Origin: a virus
UHGV virus genome: UHGV-0367476
Reading direction: 5' to 3' (one strand)
Length of the DNA stretch: 18,890 nt
Shown: positions 186 to 18,890 of the stretch, one piece after another
Numbering within the stretch: the first letter of the stretch is position 1
Layout: each line of letters opens with the position of its first letter
Notes under the pieces: generated by a model
The model's input: the letters and a program-made list of their open reading frames with translations, nothing else
Told to the model about the DNA's origin: nothing
The model's database searches: none
Made by a program: the position numbers and the translations under genes

Positions 186-1169
186 TCAGACTCCCAGCCC
201 CCCTTTCAGCGGATTCAGTGCGATAGCGTTCTGGAGATAATCCGGTGCCAGATGCGCATACGCCATCGTCTGCTGAATGCTGGCATGGCCAAGTATCTGC
301 TGAAGCGCAATGATATTCCCGCCGTTCATCATAAAGTGGCTGGCGAACGTGTGTCGCAGAATGTGGGTGGCCTGACCGCGTGGCAGGTCTGGCTTGACCT
401 TCCGCAGCTTCCGGCAGAAGTTTTCATAGTCCACCCGGAACAGCCCCGCGCTGGCGTTGGCCATAATTTCGTCTTCCAGTTCGGAAGAGATGGGAACCAC
501 GCGCTTTTTGCCGTTCTTCGTTTCCAGGAATACGACACGGCCGTGCATAATCTGCGATTCCGTCAGCGTACTGACCTCTCCCCAGCGTCCGCCTGTGCTG
601 AGGCACAGCAGGGCAACCAGTCGGTAATCGCCCGTCAGCGTGTCCAGCAGGCGGCTAATTTCCGGTTTTGTGAGAAAGGTCATGCCGGGATTTTTCTCTT
701 TCAGGGGAGGCAGACCACGCAGCGGGTTTTCCCCCTCAAACTCATCCAGCTTGATCAGTGCGCTGAACATGCCGGACAGCCGGTAAATATCGCGGTTGAC
801 CGTGGATGCGCTTATTCCCTGCGCCAGCCTGCGGCTGCGGTGGACTATCAGCATTCGTTTGTTAACCTCGCCTACCTGCGGATTATCCAGCGCGGTAATG
901 GTTTTGATGAGATGCCTGTTTTCAATCTCGCCATTCTTCTGCGTCTGGCCGTGGTAGAGCCACCACAATTCTCTGATATCGTCCAGCGTGCGCCTGTCAA
1001 TCTGTGCTGCCGGATCCCATTCCTTGCGCTGAAACTTACCCAGCATGTAGCGTTCATACGCAACAGCATCAGCCCTTCTGTTAAATATTTTGCGGATCCG
1101 CTTACTGGTGCGTCCGCCCGCTCTTGTGTCCAGTTCATAACGTCCATCATCGAGCTTCTTAATCGCCAT
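186..1169 (-). CDS. int: Tyrosine recombinase, P2-type phage integrase (327 aa from ATG at 1167-1169)
   Basis: N-terminus MAIKKLDDGRYELD and C-terminal HxLRHTFASHF...GHASIQQTMAYAHLAPDYL catalytic-Tyr region closely resemble P2 Int as recalled; GGAGGG Shine-Dalgarno 7 nt upstream of this ATG; the track's TTG start at 1226 adds 19 unsupported residues. Confidence 0.95.
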   Translation of the reverse strand: MAIKKLDDGRYELDTRAGGRTSKRIRKIFNRRADAVAYERYMLGKFQRKEWDPAAQIDRRTLDDIRELWWLYHGQTQKNGEIENRHLIKTITALDNPQVGEVNKRMLIVHRSRRLAQGISASTVNRDIYRLSGMFSALIKLDEFEGENPLRGLPPLKEKNPGMTFLTKPEISRLLDTLTGDYRLVALLCLSTGGRWGEVSTLTESQIMHGRVVFLETKNGKKRVVPISSELEDEIMANASAGLFRVDYENFCRKLRKVKPDLPRGQATHILRHTFASHFMMNGGNIIALQQILGHASIQQTMAYAHLAPDYLQNAIALNPLKGGLGV

Positions 1170-1253
1170 AGCGAAGCCCTCCGATGTAGCTTCCGGCCTG
1201 CGACCACAGGCAGTCAGCAAATTCAAAATACAGGTCTAACCAATTTTCAGCTT

Positions 1254-9253: not shown

Positions 9254-9423
9254 AATTCATCTGTTTATTAATAAGCGAATTATTCAGCAATTCAGCCGCG
9301 ATTTTTGAAAATTAATTCTGCTGAGTTCGGTTATTGCTTATATCCGAATTTCACCGAAATAATTGGAATGCGTGGGTGTATTTTATTGGTGATACTGAGC
9401 CTCGCAGAATGAACGGAGGCAAT
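9254..9423. promoter_or_regulatory. Divergent late-promoter region between terminase P (leftward) and scaffold O (rightward)
   Basis: 170-bp AT-rich intergenic region at the P/O divergence, as for P2 late promoters; contains tandem AATTCAGC repeat (about 9291-9306) and CCGAA repeats; no TGT-N12-ACA dyad found. Confidence 0.55.
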
Positions 9424-10263
9424 ATGTCAGGTTCACAACTGGCAACAAACTGGATTTGTATCGCCACTGCGGGTGAAACGGTCGATAAAAGAACCATTGA
9501 AGAACAATGGTTACTTGATGCCGCTGAATTATATGACCCCAATTTATATACCGCGCTGTTATGGCCGGAACATACCCGCAATTTCGGGAATATGGGGGAA
9601 GTGCTGGAAGTAAAAGCCGAGCGGGATGATGAAGGTATTCTTCGTTTATACGCCCGACTCTGTCCGGCTATAGCGTTGCTTCAGGCGAATGCGAAGGGGC
9701 AGCTTTTATTTTTATCACCGGAGTTTACACCGGACGGGAATTTCAGAAATACCGGGAAAACCTATCTTGAGGGGCTGGCCATTACTGACAGTCCGGCCGG
9801 GGTAAGCACCACACGGCTACGTTTCAGCCGCACCAGGGGAAAACGCATCGGACCATACAAGCCGCTGGCGTTTGATGAAGTCAGGGAATTTAAAAAGGAA
9901 AAGGGAATGTCAAAGACAGCGAAAAAGGGCTGGCGCCATTTTTTCAGTATCGAAGAACCGGAGCAGACCCCGGAGCAGGAACCTTCACAGTCTGATGCCT
10001 TACAGGCGCTGGCTGAAGCGCTGGATGCCATTGATAAGCGCGTATCTGCTATTGAAACCCGTCTGGGTGAGGCGGAAGAAGCGGTATCTGATGTGCAGGA
10101 CGATGTGGACACCGTGAAGGAAGTGGTGGACACCGAAGATTTTGCGCGTCTGGTGGGGAACCTGCCGGAGCTGGTGAAAAACTTCAGCAAGCTGAATAAC
10201 AAAGTTACTCAACTGCCGGACAAGAAATTCAGCAAGGGCAAAAAAGGCTTCAATTTCCTGTAA
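9424..10263 (+). CDS. O: Capsid scaffolding protein (P2 gpO-like), 279 aa from ATG 9424
   Basis: GGAGG 4 nt upstream of ATG; position and size match gpO; acidic coiled-coil-like C-terminal half; track start 9334 is an upstream extension. Confidence 0.85.
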   Translation: MSGSQLATNWICIATAGETVDKRTIEEQWLLDAAELYDPNLYTALLWPEHTRNFGNMGEVLEVKAERDDEGILRLYARLCPAIALLQANAKGQLLFLSPEFTPDGNFRNTGKTYLEGLAITDSPAGVSTTRLRFSRTRGKRIGPYKPLAFDEVREFKKEKGMSKTAKKGWRHFFSIEEPEQTPEQEPSQSDALQALAEALDAIDKRVSAIETRLGEAEEAVSDVQDDVDTVKEVVDTEDFARLVGNLPELVKNFSKLNNKVTQLPDKKFSKGKKGFNFL

Positions 10264-13969: not shown

Positions 13970-15093
13970 CCTGGCCAATTGTGACCGTAAACCAGGTAAA
14001 TCAGCTGCTGGGTGAAACCACGGAAGTGGAGCGCACGCTGCTGTTTATCGGCACGGGAACCAAAAATGTAGGTAAGACGCTGGCAGTTAACGCACAGAGT
14101 GATTTTGATGCGCTGCTGGGCGAGGGTGACAGCCCGTTAAAAAGTGATGTGCTGGCCGCACTGGCGAACGCCGGCCAGAACTGGTGGGGATTTGTTCATG
14201 TGCTGGCCGCAGACAGTGAGCCGGGGGCATGGGTGGAGGCCGTTAAGGCCGCACAGGTCTCCTGTTCGGTGGAAGGTGTGGTGCTGTCTGATGATGTGGC
14301 CGCGAAAGCGCAGATTAATCAGGCGGCAACGCTGCGATCTGAACTGATTGCTAAATACGGGCGCTGGGTGTGGTTCATTCTGGCGGTTCAGGGGATGCAG
14401 CAGGATGAAGCCCAGGCGGATTATCTGGTGCGTCTGTCCACCCTTCAGGAAGGTATCGCGGAAAAAGCGGTACAACTGGTACCCCGTCTCTGGGGGAATG
14501 AACCGGGCGTGCTGGCTGGTCGTCTCTGCAACCGTGCTGTCACTATTGCCGACAGTCCGGCGCGGGTGAAAACAGGCGCGTTGCTGAGTCCAGGAAGCGA
14601 TGAACTGCCGAAAGACGGTACCGGCGAAACGCTGGAACTGGCGACCCTTCAGGCGCTGGAAGCTCAGCGCTACAGCGTGCCGATGTGGTATCCGGACTAT
14701 GACGGCTTTTACTGGGCTGACGGGCGCACGCTGGACGTTGAGGGCGGTGATTACCAGTCCATCGAGACGCTGCGTATTGTGGATAAGGCAGCACGCCGCG
14801 TCCGTCTGCTGGCCATCGGTAAGATTGCCGATCGCTCACTTAACAGTACACCGGGCAGTATTGCCGCACACCAGACGCTGTTTGCCCGTCCGCTGCGGGA
14901 AATGTCCACTGCGGCCAGCATTAACGGCGTGTCATTTCCGGGCGAGGTGAAACCTCCACAGGACGGTGACGTGACCATTGTCTGGAAGAACAAAAAGGCG
15001 GTGGATATTTACATTGTGGTGCGTACGTATGAAGTACCGCTGCAGATCACCATCAGTCTGTTACTGGATGCAAGTCTGGAGGCCAGCGCATGA
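13966..15093 (+). CDS. Putative contractile tail sheath protein, 375 aa
   Basis: Assignment by order and size only: first of two genes preceding chaperone and tape measure (sheath-tube-chaperone-TMP pattern); AGGGGGAG ribosome-binding site. Confidence 0.55.
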   Translation: MTWPIVTVNQVNQLLGETTEVERTLLFIGTGTKNVGKTLAVNAQSDFDALLGEGDSPLKSDVLAALANAGQNWWGFVHVLAADSEPGAWVEAVKAAQVSCSVEGVVLSDDVAAKAQINQAATLRSELIAKYGRWVWFILAVQGMQQDEAQADYLVRLSTLQEGIAEKAVQLVPRLWGNEPGVLAGRLCNRAVTIADSPARVKTGALLSPGSDELPKDGTGETLELATLQALEAQRYSVPMWYPDYDGFYWADGRTLDVEGGDYQSIETLRIVDKAARRVRLLAIGKIADRSLNSTPGSIAAHQTLFARPLREMSTAASINGVSFPGEVKPPQDGDVTIVWKNKKAVDIYIVVRTYEVPLQITISLLLDASLEASA

Positions 15094-15545
15094 CCAAACG
15101 TATTTCAGGGATGTCCTTTGATATCTATCTGGACGGTGACCTGATCCACATTGAAAAAATTTCGCTGGATATTACCGATAACAGCGCCGCCGCACAGACG
15201 CGCGGTGTTCCTGACGGGTATGTGGACGGTGACGTTGCCGCCGAGGGTGAAATTGAAGTCAGCTCCAAAGTGCTGCAGGTTCTGACAGCCAAAGCCCGTT
15301 CAGCGGGGTCATGGCGTGGTATTCCCCCGGTTGACTTCCTTTTTTACGCCAAAGCCGGCAGCGAAGAAATGAAGGTGGAAACCTTTGGTAACAAGCTGCA
15401 GCTCAACAGCGTTCTGGATGGTGATCCGAAGGGTGGCAGTGTGTCCACGCATAAAATCAAATACTTCGTGACAAGTCCGAAGTTCGTCAACATCAACGGT
15501 GTGCCGTATCTGGAAGCGGAAGCCACGGAAAACCTGATTGGATAA
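15090..15545 (+). CDS. Putative tail tube protein, 151 aa
   Basis: Coupled to preceding gene (ATGA overlap), GGAGG ribosome-binding site, size typical of myophage tube proteins; assignment by synteny. Confidence 0.55.
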   Translation: MTKRISGMSFDIYLDGDLIHIEKISLDITDNSAAAQTRGVPDGYVDGDVAAEGEIEVSSKVLQVLTAKARSAGSWRGIPPVDFLFYAKAGSEEMKVETFGNKLQLNSVLDGDPKGGSVSTHKIKYFVTSPKFVNINGVPYLEAEATENLIG

Positions 15546-15854: not shown

Positions 15855-16192
15855 CTCTGAGCGAAAAACAGCAACTCTTTACCGTTATGGTGGCAAATCT
15901 GATCCAGTGGGCTGAAGAACATGGCTACCGGCTGACGTTTGGTGAGGCTTACCGTACCCCGGAACAGGCTGCACTGAACGCGAAAAAAGGCAGCGGCATT
16001 TCCAGCAGTCTGCACACGCAGCGTCTGGCCGTGGACTTCAATCTGTTCATTAATGGCCAGTATCAGACCGACAGCGCGGCGTATCTGCCGCTGGGTGAAT
16101 ACTGGGAATCGCTGGGTGGTTCATGGGGCGGTCGCTTCAAATCCCGCCCTGATGGTAATCATTTCAGCCTGGAACATAACGGGGTGCGCTGA
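15851..16192 (+). CDS. Endolysin, peptidase M15 (L-alanyl-D-glutamate / VanY-like zinc peptidase), 113 aa
   Basis: Motifs AYRTPEQ, LAVDF and DGNHF consistent with the M15 zinc-binding H...D...H arrangement; sits between holin and spanins. Confidence 0.85.
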   Translation: MTLSEKQQLFTVMVANLIQWAEEHGYRLTFGEAYRTPEQAALNAKKGSGISSSLHTQRLAVDFNLFINGQYQTDSAAYLPLGEYWESLGGSWGGRFKSRPDGNHFSLEHNGVR

Positions 16193-16524
16193 TGGATCGC
16201 GTCGTGTCAGGCTGGTTATTCACCCTTGCTCTGGCATTTATAGCCGGCTGGAAAACGGCCGGCTGGCAGCGGGACAGTGTTGATCTGACTGTCTCAAAAG
16301 CGGTCACCGCGACCGGGGAACAACTGGCTGAAATTGCCGGTTCATCTGGTCGCCGGCTGGAAGACAAACTGGAGGCACTGAAAAATGCGCCACCGCGTGA
16401 AATCCGCACGGAAGTGGTTAAGCCGGTATTTACCAATAAGTGTCTGTCTGATGACTTTGTCCGCATGTACAACGACGCCGTCACCAGTACCGAACGTACG
16501 TTATCAGGAAAACCTGAAAACTAA
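16192..16524 (+). CDS. i-spanin (Rz-like), N-terminal transmembrane anchor, 110 aa
   Basis: N-terminal TMD WLFTLALAFIAGW followed by charged periplasmic domain; start overlaps endolysin stop (TGATG). Confidence 0.75.
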   Translation: MDRVVSGWLFTLALAFIAGWKTAGWQRDSVDLTVSKAVTATGEQLAEIAGSSGRRLEDKLEALKNAPPREIRTEVVKPVFTNKCLSDDFVRMYNDAVTSTERTLSGKPEN

Positions 16525-16684
16525 ATGCGCCACGCAGCTGCCGCGCCTGAGTGGAACGCAGGGAAAAAATGCGGCGGAATTACTGACACTTTATCTGGAG
16601 TTATACGGGCAGTGTGCTGCACGGCATAACGCGCTTGTTGATGAAATTAATTTAAGAGAGAACGTTATTTATGGAAAAAATTAA
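16385..16684 (+). CDS. o-spanin (Rz1-like lipoprotein), overlapped +1 frame with the i-spanin 3' end and extending beyond it, 99 aa
   Basis: Signal peptide with lipobox L-S-A-C, Pro/Thr-rich mature N-terminus (CTTTPSPVP), additional Cys residues; GGAGG ribosome-binding site. Confidence 0.75.
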   Translation: MRHRVKSARKWLSRYLPISVCLMTLSACTTTPSPVPNVRYQENLKTKCATQLPRLSGTQGKNAAELLTLYLELYGQCAARHNALVDEINLRENVIYGKN

Positions 16685-16928
16685 TCTGGTTGTATGCGAA
16701 AAAGAAATCACCTTTGAACCGAATCAGACCGCTTATAATAAGTTCATCAACGAAATGGCGATGGATAATAAAGTGGCACCTGCACACAATTATCTTGTGC
16801 GCATTGTGTCTGCTGAAAGTAAAGAGGCGCTGGATGATATTCTGAAACGTCCGGGCGCAGCGATCCAGTTGGCCGGGAAAGTGAATGAACTTTATGCGCC
16901 AGAACTGGAAATTGAAGTAAAAAACTGA
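16671..16928 (+). CDS. Tail assembly chaperone (P2 gpE / lambda gpG analogue), 85 aa
   Basis: Small acidic protein immediately upstream of the tape measure gene; ends in slippery sequence A_AAA_AAC. Confidence 0.7.
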   Translation: MEKINLVVCEKEITFEPNQTAYNKFINEMAMDNKVAPAHNYLVRIVSAESKEALDDILKRPGAAIQLAGKVNELYAPELEIEVKN

Positions 16929-17119
16929 CAAAACGAGTCCGGGCAATTGAACAGAACGGACTCGAACAGTATTTAATTTTGCGTCGCCATTATTTACCAC
17001 ACGGTCAGGATTCCGTGGATGATATTTCCGCTGCGATCTGGCTGGATAATCGCCACTGGGAAAATATGCGAATAGCGGTTGCTAACGGAATCAGCACTGC
17101 ATTTAAAGGCACGGAATGA
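16671..17119 (+). CDS. Tail assembly chaperone frameshift fusion (E+E' / G-T analogue), about 149 aa via -1 ribosomal frameshift at 16919-16925
   Basis: The -1 frame is open for 64 codons from 16925 to stop TGA at 17117-17119 with no start codon of its own; stop overlaps the tape measure ATG. Confidence 0.65.
16919..16964 (+). promoter_or_regulatory. Programmed -1 frameshift signal: slippery heptamer A_AAA_AAC (16919-16925) plus downstream hairpin CGAGTCCG-15nt-CGGACTCG (16934-16964)
   Basis: Heptamer is in the X_XXY_YYZ register of the chaperone frame; perfect 8-bp stem begins 8 nt after the heptamer. Confidence 0.65.
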
Positions 17120-18890
17120 AACAGTTAGATTTTACATTAAGCCTGATTGATAAGCTGACGCGCCCGTTAAAACAGGCGCAGGGCAGCGTCACCGGCTTTG
17201 CGGAAAAATCAAAAGCGGCCTTTTCGCAGATTGGTGGCGGCGTGCTGGGACTGGTTGGCACGGGAATGGCCATAAAAGGCGCGTTATCGCCGGCTATCGA
17301 AATGTACGACGCGCTGAATGATGCCGCTGCAAAAGGGATTGATAACCAGGCATTAAAGACCGTACAGCGTGACGCGCTCCGGTTCAGCATGACCTACGGT
17401 GCCAGCGCGGTGGAGTTCGTCAAATCCACAGAGAACATTAACGCGTCCATTGCCGGCCTTACCGCCAGCGAGTTGCCGAAAGTGACGAAGGTCGCTAATA
17501 CGCTGGCATTTGCCCTGAAATCCACATCCGCCGACACGGCGGAGTTCATGGGGCAGATGTACGGTAACTTTTCCGACGATGCGGCGCGGCTGGGTAAAGT
17601 CCAGTTCGCCGAGCAACTGGCGGGAAAAATGGTGTATATGCGCAAGGTCTTCGGTACCGAAATGGGGACCATCAAAGACCTGATGGAAGGGGCGCGGGGT
17701 GTCGGGACTAACTACGGCGTCGGGCTGGATGAACAGCTGGCGGTGCTGGGGCAGCTCAACCGTACGCTGGGAACAGAAGCCAGCAGCGCTTACGAAGGCT
17801 TCATGACCGGCGCGATGGAGGGCGCTAAAAAGCTGGGGCTGTCCTTTACGGACTCCACCGGCAAAATGCTGTCCATGCCTGAAATGCTGATCAAGCTGCA
17901 GGGCAAATACGGCAAAAGCCTGGAAGGGAACCTGAAAGCCCAGGCGGAGCTGGATGCGGCATTTGGTGACAGTTCAGCGGTGATAAAACATCTGTACGGC
18001 AATGTGGCGTTACTGCAGCGTAATATCACCGAACTGGGCGGCTCTGACGGGCTGAAGCGTACACAGGAGATGGCCGGGAAGCTGGTCAAGCCGTGGGATC
18101 GCTTTGTACAAATCCTCAAAGCCATTCAGACGGTGATCGGACTGACGTTGATCCCGGTTCTGTACCCGGTCCTGAACCGTCTGGCCGATATGGGGCAGAC
18201 GTTCGGCCGCTGGATGCAGATGTTTCCCAATATTGCGCGGGTGATTGGTTACGTGCAGCTTGCGCTGTTTGGTGTGGCGGCAGCGGGCGCGGTGACAAAT
18301 ATTGTCATGGGCGTCTCAAAATTTATCCTGGTGGGACTGAAGGGACTCTGGAGCGCCCTGACGCTGGTCACGAAGATTTACACGGCCACGGTCTGGGTTG
18401 CCTCCAAGGCTGTTGTGGTGTGGAACCTGACGCTGAAATTCCTGCGGGGTACGCTGCTGGCCGTGCGTATGGCGGCGATAATGGCCGGTATTGGCATCAA
18501 CCTGATGAGCTGGCCGGTTCTGCTGGTTATCGGGGCGATTGCTCTGCTGGCTGCCGGGTGTTATCTGCTGATTAAACACTGGGATGATGTGAAAGCGGCG
18601 GTGATGAATACGGCAGCGTTTACCGCCGTGGCTGGTGTGGTGGAATGGCTTGCCGGCGTGTTTTCCGCTGCGTGGCAATGGATCACGGACGGCTGGAACA
18701 GCTTTATTGCGCTGCTGACCGGGTTTTCACCGTCACAGGCGTTAAGCGGCATGGCCAGCGGGATTGTTTCCCTGTTTGATAACGTCTGGCAGACCATCAA
18801 AGGCGGGTTCCTGAAATCGTGGAACTGGATTGTCGGAAAACTCAATAAAATTCCGGGCGTCGATATTTCACTGGCGAACGAATCTCAACC
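17116..18890 (+). CDS. Tail tape measure protein, 5' portion (591 codons; continues past window end)
   Basis: Every codon from ATG 17116 to the window edge was checked by hand and no stop found; Ala/Gly-rich with long hydrophobic segments typical of tape measure proteins; absent from the ORF track, presumably because no stop lies in the window. Confidence 0.85.
   Translation, partial: MKQLDFTLSLIDKLTRPLKQAQGSVTGFAEKSKAAFSQIGGGVLGLVGTGMAIKGALSPAIEMYDALNDAAAKGIDNQALKTVQRDALRFSMTYGASAVEFVKSTENINASIAGLTASELPKVTKVANTLAFALKSTSADTAEFMGQMYGNFSDDAARLGKVQFAEQLAGKMVYMRKVFGTEMGTIKDLMEGARGVGTNYGVGLDEQLAVLGQLNRTLGTEASSAYEGFMTGAMEGAKKLGLSFTDSTGKMLSMPEMLIKLQGKYGKSLEGNLKAQAELDAAFGDSSAVIKHLYGNVALLQRNITELGGSDGLKRTQEMAGKLVKPWDRFVQILKAIQTVIGLTLIPVLYPVLNRLADMGQTFGRWMQMFPNIARVIGYVQLALFGVAAAGAVTNIVMGVSKFILVGLKGLWSALTLVTKIYTATVWVASKAVVVWNLTLKFLRGTLLAVRMAAIMAGIGINLMSWPVLLVIGAIALLAAGCYLLIKHWDDVKAAVMNTAAFTAVAGVVEWLAGVFSAAWQWITDGWNSFIALLTGFSPSQALSGMASGIVSLFDNVWQTIKGGFLKSWNWIVGKLNKIPGVDISLANESQ

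Follow-up and report, generated by a model that had tools for sequence, protein, structure and literature searches.

Results

Genomic context of the tail chaperone gene

The stretch of DNA analysed here, called the window, is the whole 18,890-nt viral sequence UHGV-0367476. The window is an ESSI-2/Evevirus-like, HP1-type prophage of the Peduoviridae. The genome type is that of a P2/HP1-like temperate myovirus. Over region 16500-17400 the closest match is at 97% identity to Escherichia phage ESSI2_ev239 (Peduoviridae, Evevirus; ev239 below), and identity to the group of Cronobacter phage ESSI-2 is about 80%. The window carries an integrase, the real gene for which lies on the minus strand, and a primase-like replication protein. 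Further genes encode the portal, the large terminase, the GPO scaffold, the P2-type capsid protein and the small terminase, and gpL, gpR and gpS are also present. The sheath (Pfam DUF2586), a tube protein of the HP1 Orf24 type, the tail assembly chaperone and the tape-measure protein are encoded as well; holin, endolysin and spanin make up the lysis genes. The tube gene (15090-15545) lies upstream of the chaperone gene, and the holin-endolysin-spanin cassette sits between the two, as in HP1. The tape-measure gene begins at 17116. Its 5' part (17116-18890), which runs off the window, matches PF10145 PhageMin_Tail (E = 1e-21), and RefSeq names it 'tail tape measure protein'. This gene and all the features described below are on the plus strand.

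The chaperone ORF occupies positions 16671-16928 in the 0 frame and encodes a G/E-like product of 85 aa. It was assigned to PF10963 Phage_TAC_10 (HP1 orf26 type) with E = 9e-36 and 122.4 bits against a cut-off of 25.7, and the match covers model positions 1-82 of 82. The predicted structure has a fold in common with the HK97 homologue; the chaperone and the extension described below, which are the two halves of the putative fusion, were modelled separately. A sequence search of the PDB returned noise only. The chaperone ends with …LEIEVKN, and its last codons are GTA AAA AAC TGA. They contain the slippery heptamer A_AAA_AAC (16919-16925) in the X_XXY_YYZ register, GT[A AAA AAC], followed directly on its 3' side by the 0-frame stop TGA (16926-16928). 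This stop may serve as an auxiliary pause element. Translation of the -1 frame reveals a TGA at 16913-16915, the upstream limit of a shift window of 16916-16925. Because there are stops in both frames, entry into the open -1 frame is confined to this shift window, which is essentially the heptamer itself. The third frame of the region is full of stops. Of the 5,517 codon positions in the genes of the window, 17 (0.3%) hold an in-register X_XXY_YYZ heptamer. With 0.3% per codon and a shift window of three codons, the probability of such a heptamer by chance is therefore about 1%, before conservation is counted.

The -1 frame extension

In the -1 frame, 64 codons (16925-17116) lead to a TGA at 17117-17119 that overlaps the tape-measure ATG at 17116 (ATGA). 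This extension (16925-17119 with the stop) encodes a T/E'-like domain assigned to Pfam DUF6890. Its residues 19-62 match PF21830 from end to end (model 1-44 of 44), with E = 1e-25 and 89.4 bits at a cut-off of 23.6. It is predicted to fold as a two-helix hairpin (pLDDT 78.5). Chaperone and extension together (16671-17119) adjoin the tape-measure gene at 17116, which is the position of a G/GT-type pair. Conceptual translation of the predicted frameshift fusion, join(16671..16925, 16925..17119), gives a protein of 149 aa with TAC_10 at residues 4-85 and DUF6890 at residues 104-147. The initial annotation had proposed a chaperone ORF that ends in GTA AAA AAC TGA with an in-register heptamer, and a -1 frame that stays open for 64 codons up to a TGA overlapping the tape-measure start. 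Both were found exactly as described, and all the coordinates it gave proved right.

We determined the pN/pS ratio in all three frames for 91 distinct sequences. For codons 2-18 after the heptamer the ratio was 0.30 in the -1 frame and 1.3 and 1.6 in the others; for codons 19-60 it was 0.25, compared to 1.2 and 2.1. Judged from these substitution patterns, purifying selection acts on the whole extension, starting right at the heptamer. The proposal that the gap is non-coding in appearance only thus holds: it evolves as coding sequence in the -1 frame.

The extension was also said to lack a start codon. It turned out that none of the positions in the -1 frame carries a conserved start codon in the 91 distinct relatives. 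The first ATG, GTG or TTG lies anywhere from codon 3 to codon 56, with 30 sequences having it at codon 48 and 21 at codon 19. In the window itself, a TTG at 16979 opens a 46-aa ORF (16979-17119) annotated separately as 'DUF6890 family protein', so that the claim stands for a conserved start and not for the sequence as such. The equivalent TTG at codon 19 is present in 22 of the 91 distinct relatives, about a quarter, and no Shine-Dalgarno sequence precedes TTG 16979. We judge the 46-aa ORF to be an annotation artefact. The gap was also considered as a regulatory intergenic spacer. This reading was rejected because a promoter scan of the gap found no promoter-like site, and the one terminator-like site was merely at chance level. 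An Rfam scan of 16600-17200 gave sub-threshold noise only.

Conservation of the slippery site

The locus was compared in 113 loci: 31 GTDB species representatives, 80 IMG/VR contigs, the window and ev239. The GTDB loci come from Enterobacter, Salmonella, Kluyvera, Siccibacter, Rahnella, Ewingella, Morganella, Providencia, Pragia and Aeromonas. Since the 113 loci are phylogenetically related, the counts given here are not counts of independent events. The heptamer is NNA_AAA_AAC in 110 of the 113 loci and A_AAA_AAA in 2, which makes 112 in total. The last three chaperone codons are GTAAAAAAC in 104 loci, CTAAAAAAC in 5, ATAAAAAAC in 1, GTAAAAAAA in 2 and ATAAAGGAA in 1. The exception, L030 (a Providencia MAG), has ATA AAG and no heptamer, and it keeps an in-register A_AAG tetramer. 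A_AAG is the most shift-prone tetramer in E. coli (PMC4066793). A stop directly follows the heptamer position in all 113 loci (TGA 76, TAA 32, TAG 5), and the shift window is 10 nt long in 93 of the 113. The length of the -1 frame is 64 codons in 98 loci, 63 in 12, 62 in 2 and 60 in 1. In 97 of 113 loci the tape-measure start precedes the -1 stop by 1 nt, and in the others where a start was found the two are within 9 nt of each other.

The third-position entropy of the three heptamer codons is 0.0, 0.1 and 0.23 bits, compared to 0.8-1.9 bits at most other codons. At the -3 position the residue varies (Val, Leu or Ile) and the codon is always NTA; at a control Val column, position -15, we counted GTA 28, GTT 18 and GTG 12. 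The Lys of the heptamer is encoded by AAA in 79 of 80 distinct sequences. The synonymous sites within the heptamer are frozen.

The downstream hairpin

A putative stimulatory hairpin (16934-16964) follows the heptamer after a spacer of 8 nt. It consists of an 8-bp stem and a 15-nt loop, with the arm CGAGTCCG (16934-16941) paired to CGGACTCG (16957-16964). The perfect 8-bp helix at this spacing had been noted in the initial annotation and was recovered in our folding. In a 71-nt context the fold has an energy of -17.9 kcal/mol (z = -3.5), and none of 200 shuffled sequences was as stable. We also examined the 8-bp helix in 59 distinct sequences of a gap-free alignment. Paired cells make up 91.3% of the helix, compared to 8-42% after displacement of the 3' arm by 1-3 columns. 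Double-sided changes were found in 6 of the 8 stem pairs, and none of 500 shuffles reached the covariation score. In 28 sequences the helix is closed by G-C and in 21 by A-U, with G-U as an intermediate in 5. Judged from the flanking sequence, this closing pair probably switched independently at least two or three times. The arms at this position read CTAACCCG…CGGGTTAG in Pragia fontium (L029), where three pairs are compensatory.

The arms of the hairpin also encode conserved residues (RVR…NGLE), so that its conservation is partly driven by the protein. At the closing pair the change on the 5' side replaces Arg by Gln or His, and that on the 3' side is a synonymous switch between AAC and AAT; protein constraint alone is therefore not enough to account for its pattern. 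By-eye inspection for a pseudoknot showed a variable loop sequence with no conserved partner evident.

Relatives outside the clade of the window, in Rahnella/Ewingella, Morganella, Aeromonas and Providencia, do not share the stem. In Rahnella and Ewingella another hairpin, GGCGCG…CGCGCC, lies closer to the heptamer. Other GC-rich structures were found in Aeromonas, in phage SI7 and in the locus L032, and the Providencia relatives have a weak fold of -6 kcal/mol. The elements of a canonical -1 PRF signal, i.e. a heptamer, a spacer of 5-9 nt and a covarying structure, are found together within the clade of the window only.

Distant HP1-like phages

In a tblastn search with the fusion, both halves were found, in two frames, in 65 phage records. 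These include phages of Vibrio, Pseudomonas, Pseudoalteromonas, Pasteurella, Haemophilus, Aeromonas, Yersinia and Salmonella. We inspected ten distant phages: HP1, K139, phiO18P, F108, SI7, YenM_324, PV94, 1.202.O, phi3 and ACA1. All ten have an in-register GTA_AAA_AAN (CTA_AAA_AAC in K139), and in all ten a DUF6890-like -1 ORF follows the heptamer and reaches the tape-measure gene. Heptamer and extension are thus still present in distant phages at 37-45% identity. The list of phages that retain the heptamer names an HP2-type phage besides these ten. In phi3 (A_AAA_AAG) and ACA1 (A_AAA_AAA) the 0 frame goes on for 7 codons beyond the heptamer. Because the stop of these two phages lies 7 codons downstream, it is the heptamer, and not the stop, that is the universal element.

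HP1 orf26 and K139 orf30 match PF10963, the same model as the chaperone of the window. Together with phiO18P gp36-37 and ACA1 gp36-gp36a they are true homologues of the window pair, with a PF10963 chaperone, GTA_AAA_AAN, a DUF6890-like extension and then the tape-measure gene. The gene order is also shared, the lysis cassette coming before the chaperone. The homologues differ from the window in that identity is 33-58% and the downstream hairpins are different or absent. The record of the Pseudoalteromonas phage ACA1 contains a joined CDS for the PF10963 gene with the remark 'projected programmed frameshift analogous to that in phage P2'. Among the records checked, the frameshift is annotated in ACA1 only. 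Our literature search found no paper on frameshifting in this lineage.

Discussion

Proposed mechanism

We have found that the chaperone is the upstream ORF, that the -1 ORF is conserved and has no initiation signals, and that a conserved in-register slippery site lies in the 10-nt overlap. All predictions of a G/GT-type programmed -1 frameshift that could be tested were borne out, and this interpretation is supported. We put the probability that the tail assembly chaperone of this ESSI-2/Evevirus-like prophage is subject to programmed -1 ribosomal frameshifting at about 90%.

Under such frameshifting, most ribosomes would translate 16671-16928 and terminate, giving the 85-aa Phage_TAC_10 chaperone. 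Once tRNA-Lys has paired with AAA and tRNA-Asn with AAC, translocation would meet resistance from the hairpin, which then lies at the mRNA entrance. A minority of ribosomes, paused by this hairpin 8 nt downstream, would slip one base back on A_AAA_AAC, and the adjacent stop codon possibly adds to the pause. Both tRNAs would re-pair one base back (AAA, AAA), and decoding would resume at CTG ACA AAA…. The shifted ribosomes would read 64 further codons and terminate at the TGA 17117-17119, giving the 149-aa fusion. The junction would be …EVKN-LTK… (VKNLTKRVRAIE after Glu-C) in the case of tandem slippage and …EVKK-LTK… (VKKLTKRVRAIE after Glu-C) in the case of single-tRNA slippage. If lambda gpG/gpGT and P2 gpE/gpE+E' are taken as a guide, the N-terminal part that both products have in common would serve to coat the tape-measure protein, and the extension would recruit the tube protein (15090-15545). 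The signal would set a low and fixed ratio of fusion to chaperone. We infer that the slippage is ribosomal, and likewise its efficiency and the binding partners of the two products.

The motif A_AAA_AAC is a low-efficiency heptamer in E. coli, yet it is used by IS elements (PMC4066793). Its poor shifting in E. coli assays is a point against the reading. In lambda the ratio of G to GT is about 30:1, and P2 and phages related to it shift 2- to 3-fold more efficiently (PMC5009743). By analogy, a weak heptamer would fit the need for a small fixed fraction of fusion protein.

Comparison with known frameshift systems

The -1 frameshift of phage P2 gpE/gpE+E', reportedly described by Christie et al. 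in 2002, is a close parallel; the facts on P2 used here come in part from the annotation of NC_001895. P2, like the window, belongs to the Peduoviridae, has a contractile tail and encodes a small chaperone directly upstream of the tape measure (91 aa in P2, 85 aa in the window). In both, the -1 extension has about 50-64 codons, lacks a start of its own and ends in an overlap with the tape-measure start, and the fusions have about 142-149 aa. The protein families are different: gpE is PF10109 Phage_TAC_7 and E' is PF06528 Phage_P2_GpE, whereas the window has Phage_TAC_10 and DUF6890. Neither half from the window matched PF10109 or PF06528 in Pfam at E <= 1. BLASTP comparison with P2 gave E = 1.0, and the hhalign probability was 0.1-0.3% for both halves. 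Sequence homology to P2 E/E' was rejected, since it has no support from BLASTP, hhalign or Pfam. The heptamers also differ: that of P2 is T_TTT_TTG, 6 codons before the stop, whereas A_AAA_AAC in the window abuts the stop. The lysis cassette between the tube gene and the chaperone is a further feature that sets the window apart from P2. The locus works like P2 E/E+E' yet lies outside those protein families.

The lambda pair gpG/gpGT is said to have been characterised by Levin et al. in 1993 and by Xu et al. in 2004, 2013 and 2014. The heptamer of lambda is G_GGA_AAG, and no downstream structure is known to be required. The window shares the logic of lambda G/GT, in which a chaperone and its -1 extended form are made from one mRNA at a fixed low ratio just before the tape measure; for the window such a ratio would hold by analogy. 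Lambda is a siphovirus, and its proteins are unrelated in sequence to the window pair. In lambda the tape measure is bound by the G part and the tube protein by the T part, and both parts are absent from the virion (PMC5009743). The transposase frameshifts of IS1 and the IS3 family use the same class of heptamer (A_AAA_AAC/A_AAA_AAG) in enterobacterial hosts (PMC4066793). In IS elements the low-efficiency motif sets a low level of fusion protein, often together with a downstream hairpin (PMC4066793). Their genes and biology are unrelated to the window, and they are a precedent only for A_AAA_AAC as a programmed site in E. coli. The initial annotation had referred the locus to the conserved G/GT (E/E') frameshift of tailed phages. 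Its position, heptamer, extension and covariation bear this out, and kinship does not: as far as sequence comparison goes, the window pair are analogues of P2 E/E' and lambda G/T, not sequence homologues.

Alternative explanations

The same fusion protein could arise without ribosomal slippage, if RNA polymerase added one A in the A6 run at 16919-16924; the junction would then be …VKK-LTK…, the peptide VKKLTKRVRAIE. Efficient slippage of bacterial RNA polymerase needs roughly 9 or more A/T, and the run here has merely 6 A. The site is a homopolymeric A run, extended to A7 in two relatives and several Vibrio phages, and A7/U7 runs may yield mRNA indels (PMC4066793). However, it is the in-register heptamer that is kept, with C as the last base in 110 of 113 loci, and not the length of the run. 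The L030 variant ATA AAG has just A3, and a hairpin that covaries and lies at the canonical distance of 8 nt is a stimulator of ribosomes. We consider transcriptional slippage very improbable. A further alternative is translation of the -1 ORF on its own, from TTG 16979 or from the non-canonical CTG 16925, including reinitiation at the overlapping stop. RefSeq/PGAP annotates an independent gene in ev239 and 38 E. coli genomes, the TTG does open a 46-aa ORF, and the 64-aa NCBI models start at the CTG. These annotated starts are, however, mutually inconsistent. No start-type codon is conserved, TTG being present at codon 19 in 22 of 91 sequences, and the region has neither a Shine-Dalgarno sequence before 16979 nor a promoter-like site. 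The 18 codons ahead of the TTG are equally constrained (pN/pS 0.30). Termination-reinitiation at the CTG that overlaps TGA was rejected, as relatives with TAA or TAG carry CTA or ATA there: 37 of 113 loci have such stops, and a first -1 codon CTA or ATA cannot initiate, which excludes reinitiation. An independent gene is likewise very improbable in our estimation.

It might also be supposed that the two frames are an artefact or a sign of decay, and that one gene of 149 aa is split by a sequencing error or by a recent frameshift mutation in the A run. The gap could also be taken for a plain non-coding spacer. Homopolymer runs are prone to errors and mutation, and an in-frame fused homologue is a priori not needed to explain the data. 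However, the identical two-frame layout is found in 113 independent assemblies from six bacterial orders, including complete genomes and cultured phages. None of the 117 chaperone homologues is a fused protein of about 150 aa, and the gap evolves as coding sequence. The probability of this explanation is close to nil. A sequencing error at the A run, which the initial annotation had named as a possible refutation, is effectively refuted already by these observations, and so is the artefact or decay reading as a whole.

Programmed frameshifting could also be read more broadly, for all HP1-type phages at once. DUF6890 would then, in all genomes that have it, be the 'T domain' of an HP1-type chaperone, made by frameshifting only and nowhere a gene of its own, and the HP1-type signal would be a distinct architecture in which a deliberately weak heptamer is set against a stop. 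Slow termination, with the stop in the A site, would cooperate with the downstream structure in driving the -1 slip. In clades without the hairpin, such as Providencia, the stop would replace the downstream structure. We regard this joint reading as speculative and rather unlikely to hold in full.

Database treatment and significance

In the RefSeq record of ev239 the chaperone is followed by a 46-aa 'hypothetical protein' as a gene of its own, with the counterpart of TTG 16979 as its start, and then by the tape-measure gene. In 38 E. coli chromosomes PGAP names the small ORF 'DUF6890 family protein'. In a collection of 5.8 billion proteins the DUF6890 entries have lengths of 64, 62, 60, 57, 55, 47, 46 and 45 aa. 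The 64-aa models open with 'MTKRVR…', so that the CTG overlapping the end of the heptamer was taken as the initiator. The 117 chaperone homologues in the same collection are all 82-112 aa long, and no natural in-frame TAC_10-DUF6890 fusion is among them.

The device is ordinary and well known in phages, and annotation of this lineage lacks it. The finding leaves our view of tail assembly and of frameshifting as it was; its value is largely practical, in that annotation can be corrected and DUF6890 assigned. What it shows is that RefSeq/PGAP lacks a tail gene product, predicted to be essential, for Evevirus/ESSI-2-like phages and for most HP1-like Peduoviridae, and has instead a 'DUF6890 family protein' whose starts are arbitrary and sometimes non-canonical. 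The annotation rule would be GTA_AAA_AAN at the end of a PF10963 ORF. If DUF6890 is the -1 extension of Phage_TAC_10, there is one domain of unknown function fewer. The loci also offer a well-sampled natural data set on weak heptamers in bacteria, with an invariant heptamer, variable stimulators and a covarying hairpin.

Gene calls in the window and in its relatives

The integrase ORF lies on the minus strand of the window (186-1226) and carries the Int_N and Phage_integrase domains. Therefore, the 405-aa ORF on the plus strand (48-1265), which has no Pfam match, is a shadow ORF opposite the integrase gene. In the early region, the plus strand encodes a protein with an Rv2179c-like 3'-5' exoribonuclease domain (2288-2857, E = 1e-67), an unusual accessory for a P2/HP1-like prophage. 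The scaffold (GPO) gene (9334-10263, plus strand) contains four in-register X_XXY_YYZ heptamers, GGGAAAA, AAAGGGA, AAAGGGC and TTTTTTC, inside about 100 nt; elsewhere in the window there are at most three per gene.

A 99-aa plus-strand ORF (16385-16684) overlaps the Rz-like i-spanin gene (16192-16524) at the gene's 3' end, in a different frame. We found that it has a weak match to the Rz1-like LysC family (E = 5e-4, under the Pfam cut-off), and it is probably the overlapped o-spanin. The RefSeq record of the Evevirus relative ESSI2_ev239 carries no annotation for its counterpart. In Vibrio phage K139 (NC_003313), orf30 as annotated (332-910, 192 aa) combines LysC (Rz1-like) and Phage_TAC_10 in one ORF. 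Probably orf30 is a run-on annotation and the tail chaperone has its true start inside it. The -1 extension 3' of orf30 is also left without annotation.

In the lineage of the window, NCBI annotates the -1 extension as a "DUF6890 family protein", and the PGAP models of this family (proteins P0118-P0159) use at least eight distinct start positions. One of them is a CTG read as Met, which overlaps the slippery heptamer. This variation is a systematic annotation artefact, because the frameshift model is missing.

Conservation of the slippery site and the hairpin

The only relative without the slippery heptamer is L030, a Providencia sp. MAG (2741-2752). Its chaperone ends in ATA AAG GAA TAG, where an in-register A_AAG tetramer is all that remains of the heptamer, and a -1 extension of normal size (63 codons) follows. 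L030 may be a natural case of a heptamer swapped for a tetramer. In Enterobacter sp. EA-1 (L031, CP025776, 2501-2756) the chaperone gene is apparently frame-disrupted, and the downstream region with GTAAAAAAC TGA and the hairpin is intact. It is possible that this is a pseudogene of a decaying prophage, or else an assembly error.

In the Rahnella/Ewingella loci (L017-L021, about 2760-2776) and in L024, L025, L032, L117 and L118, another GC-rich hairpin, for example GGCGCG GGTG CGCGCC, stands in place of the 8-bp hairpin of the window (16934-16964). The replacement begins only 4 nt past the heptamer. It seems that the heptamer is fixed while the stimulatory element turns over among clades.
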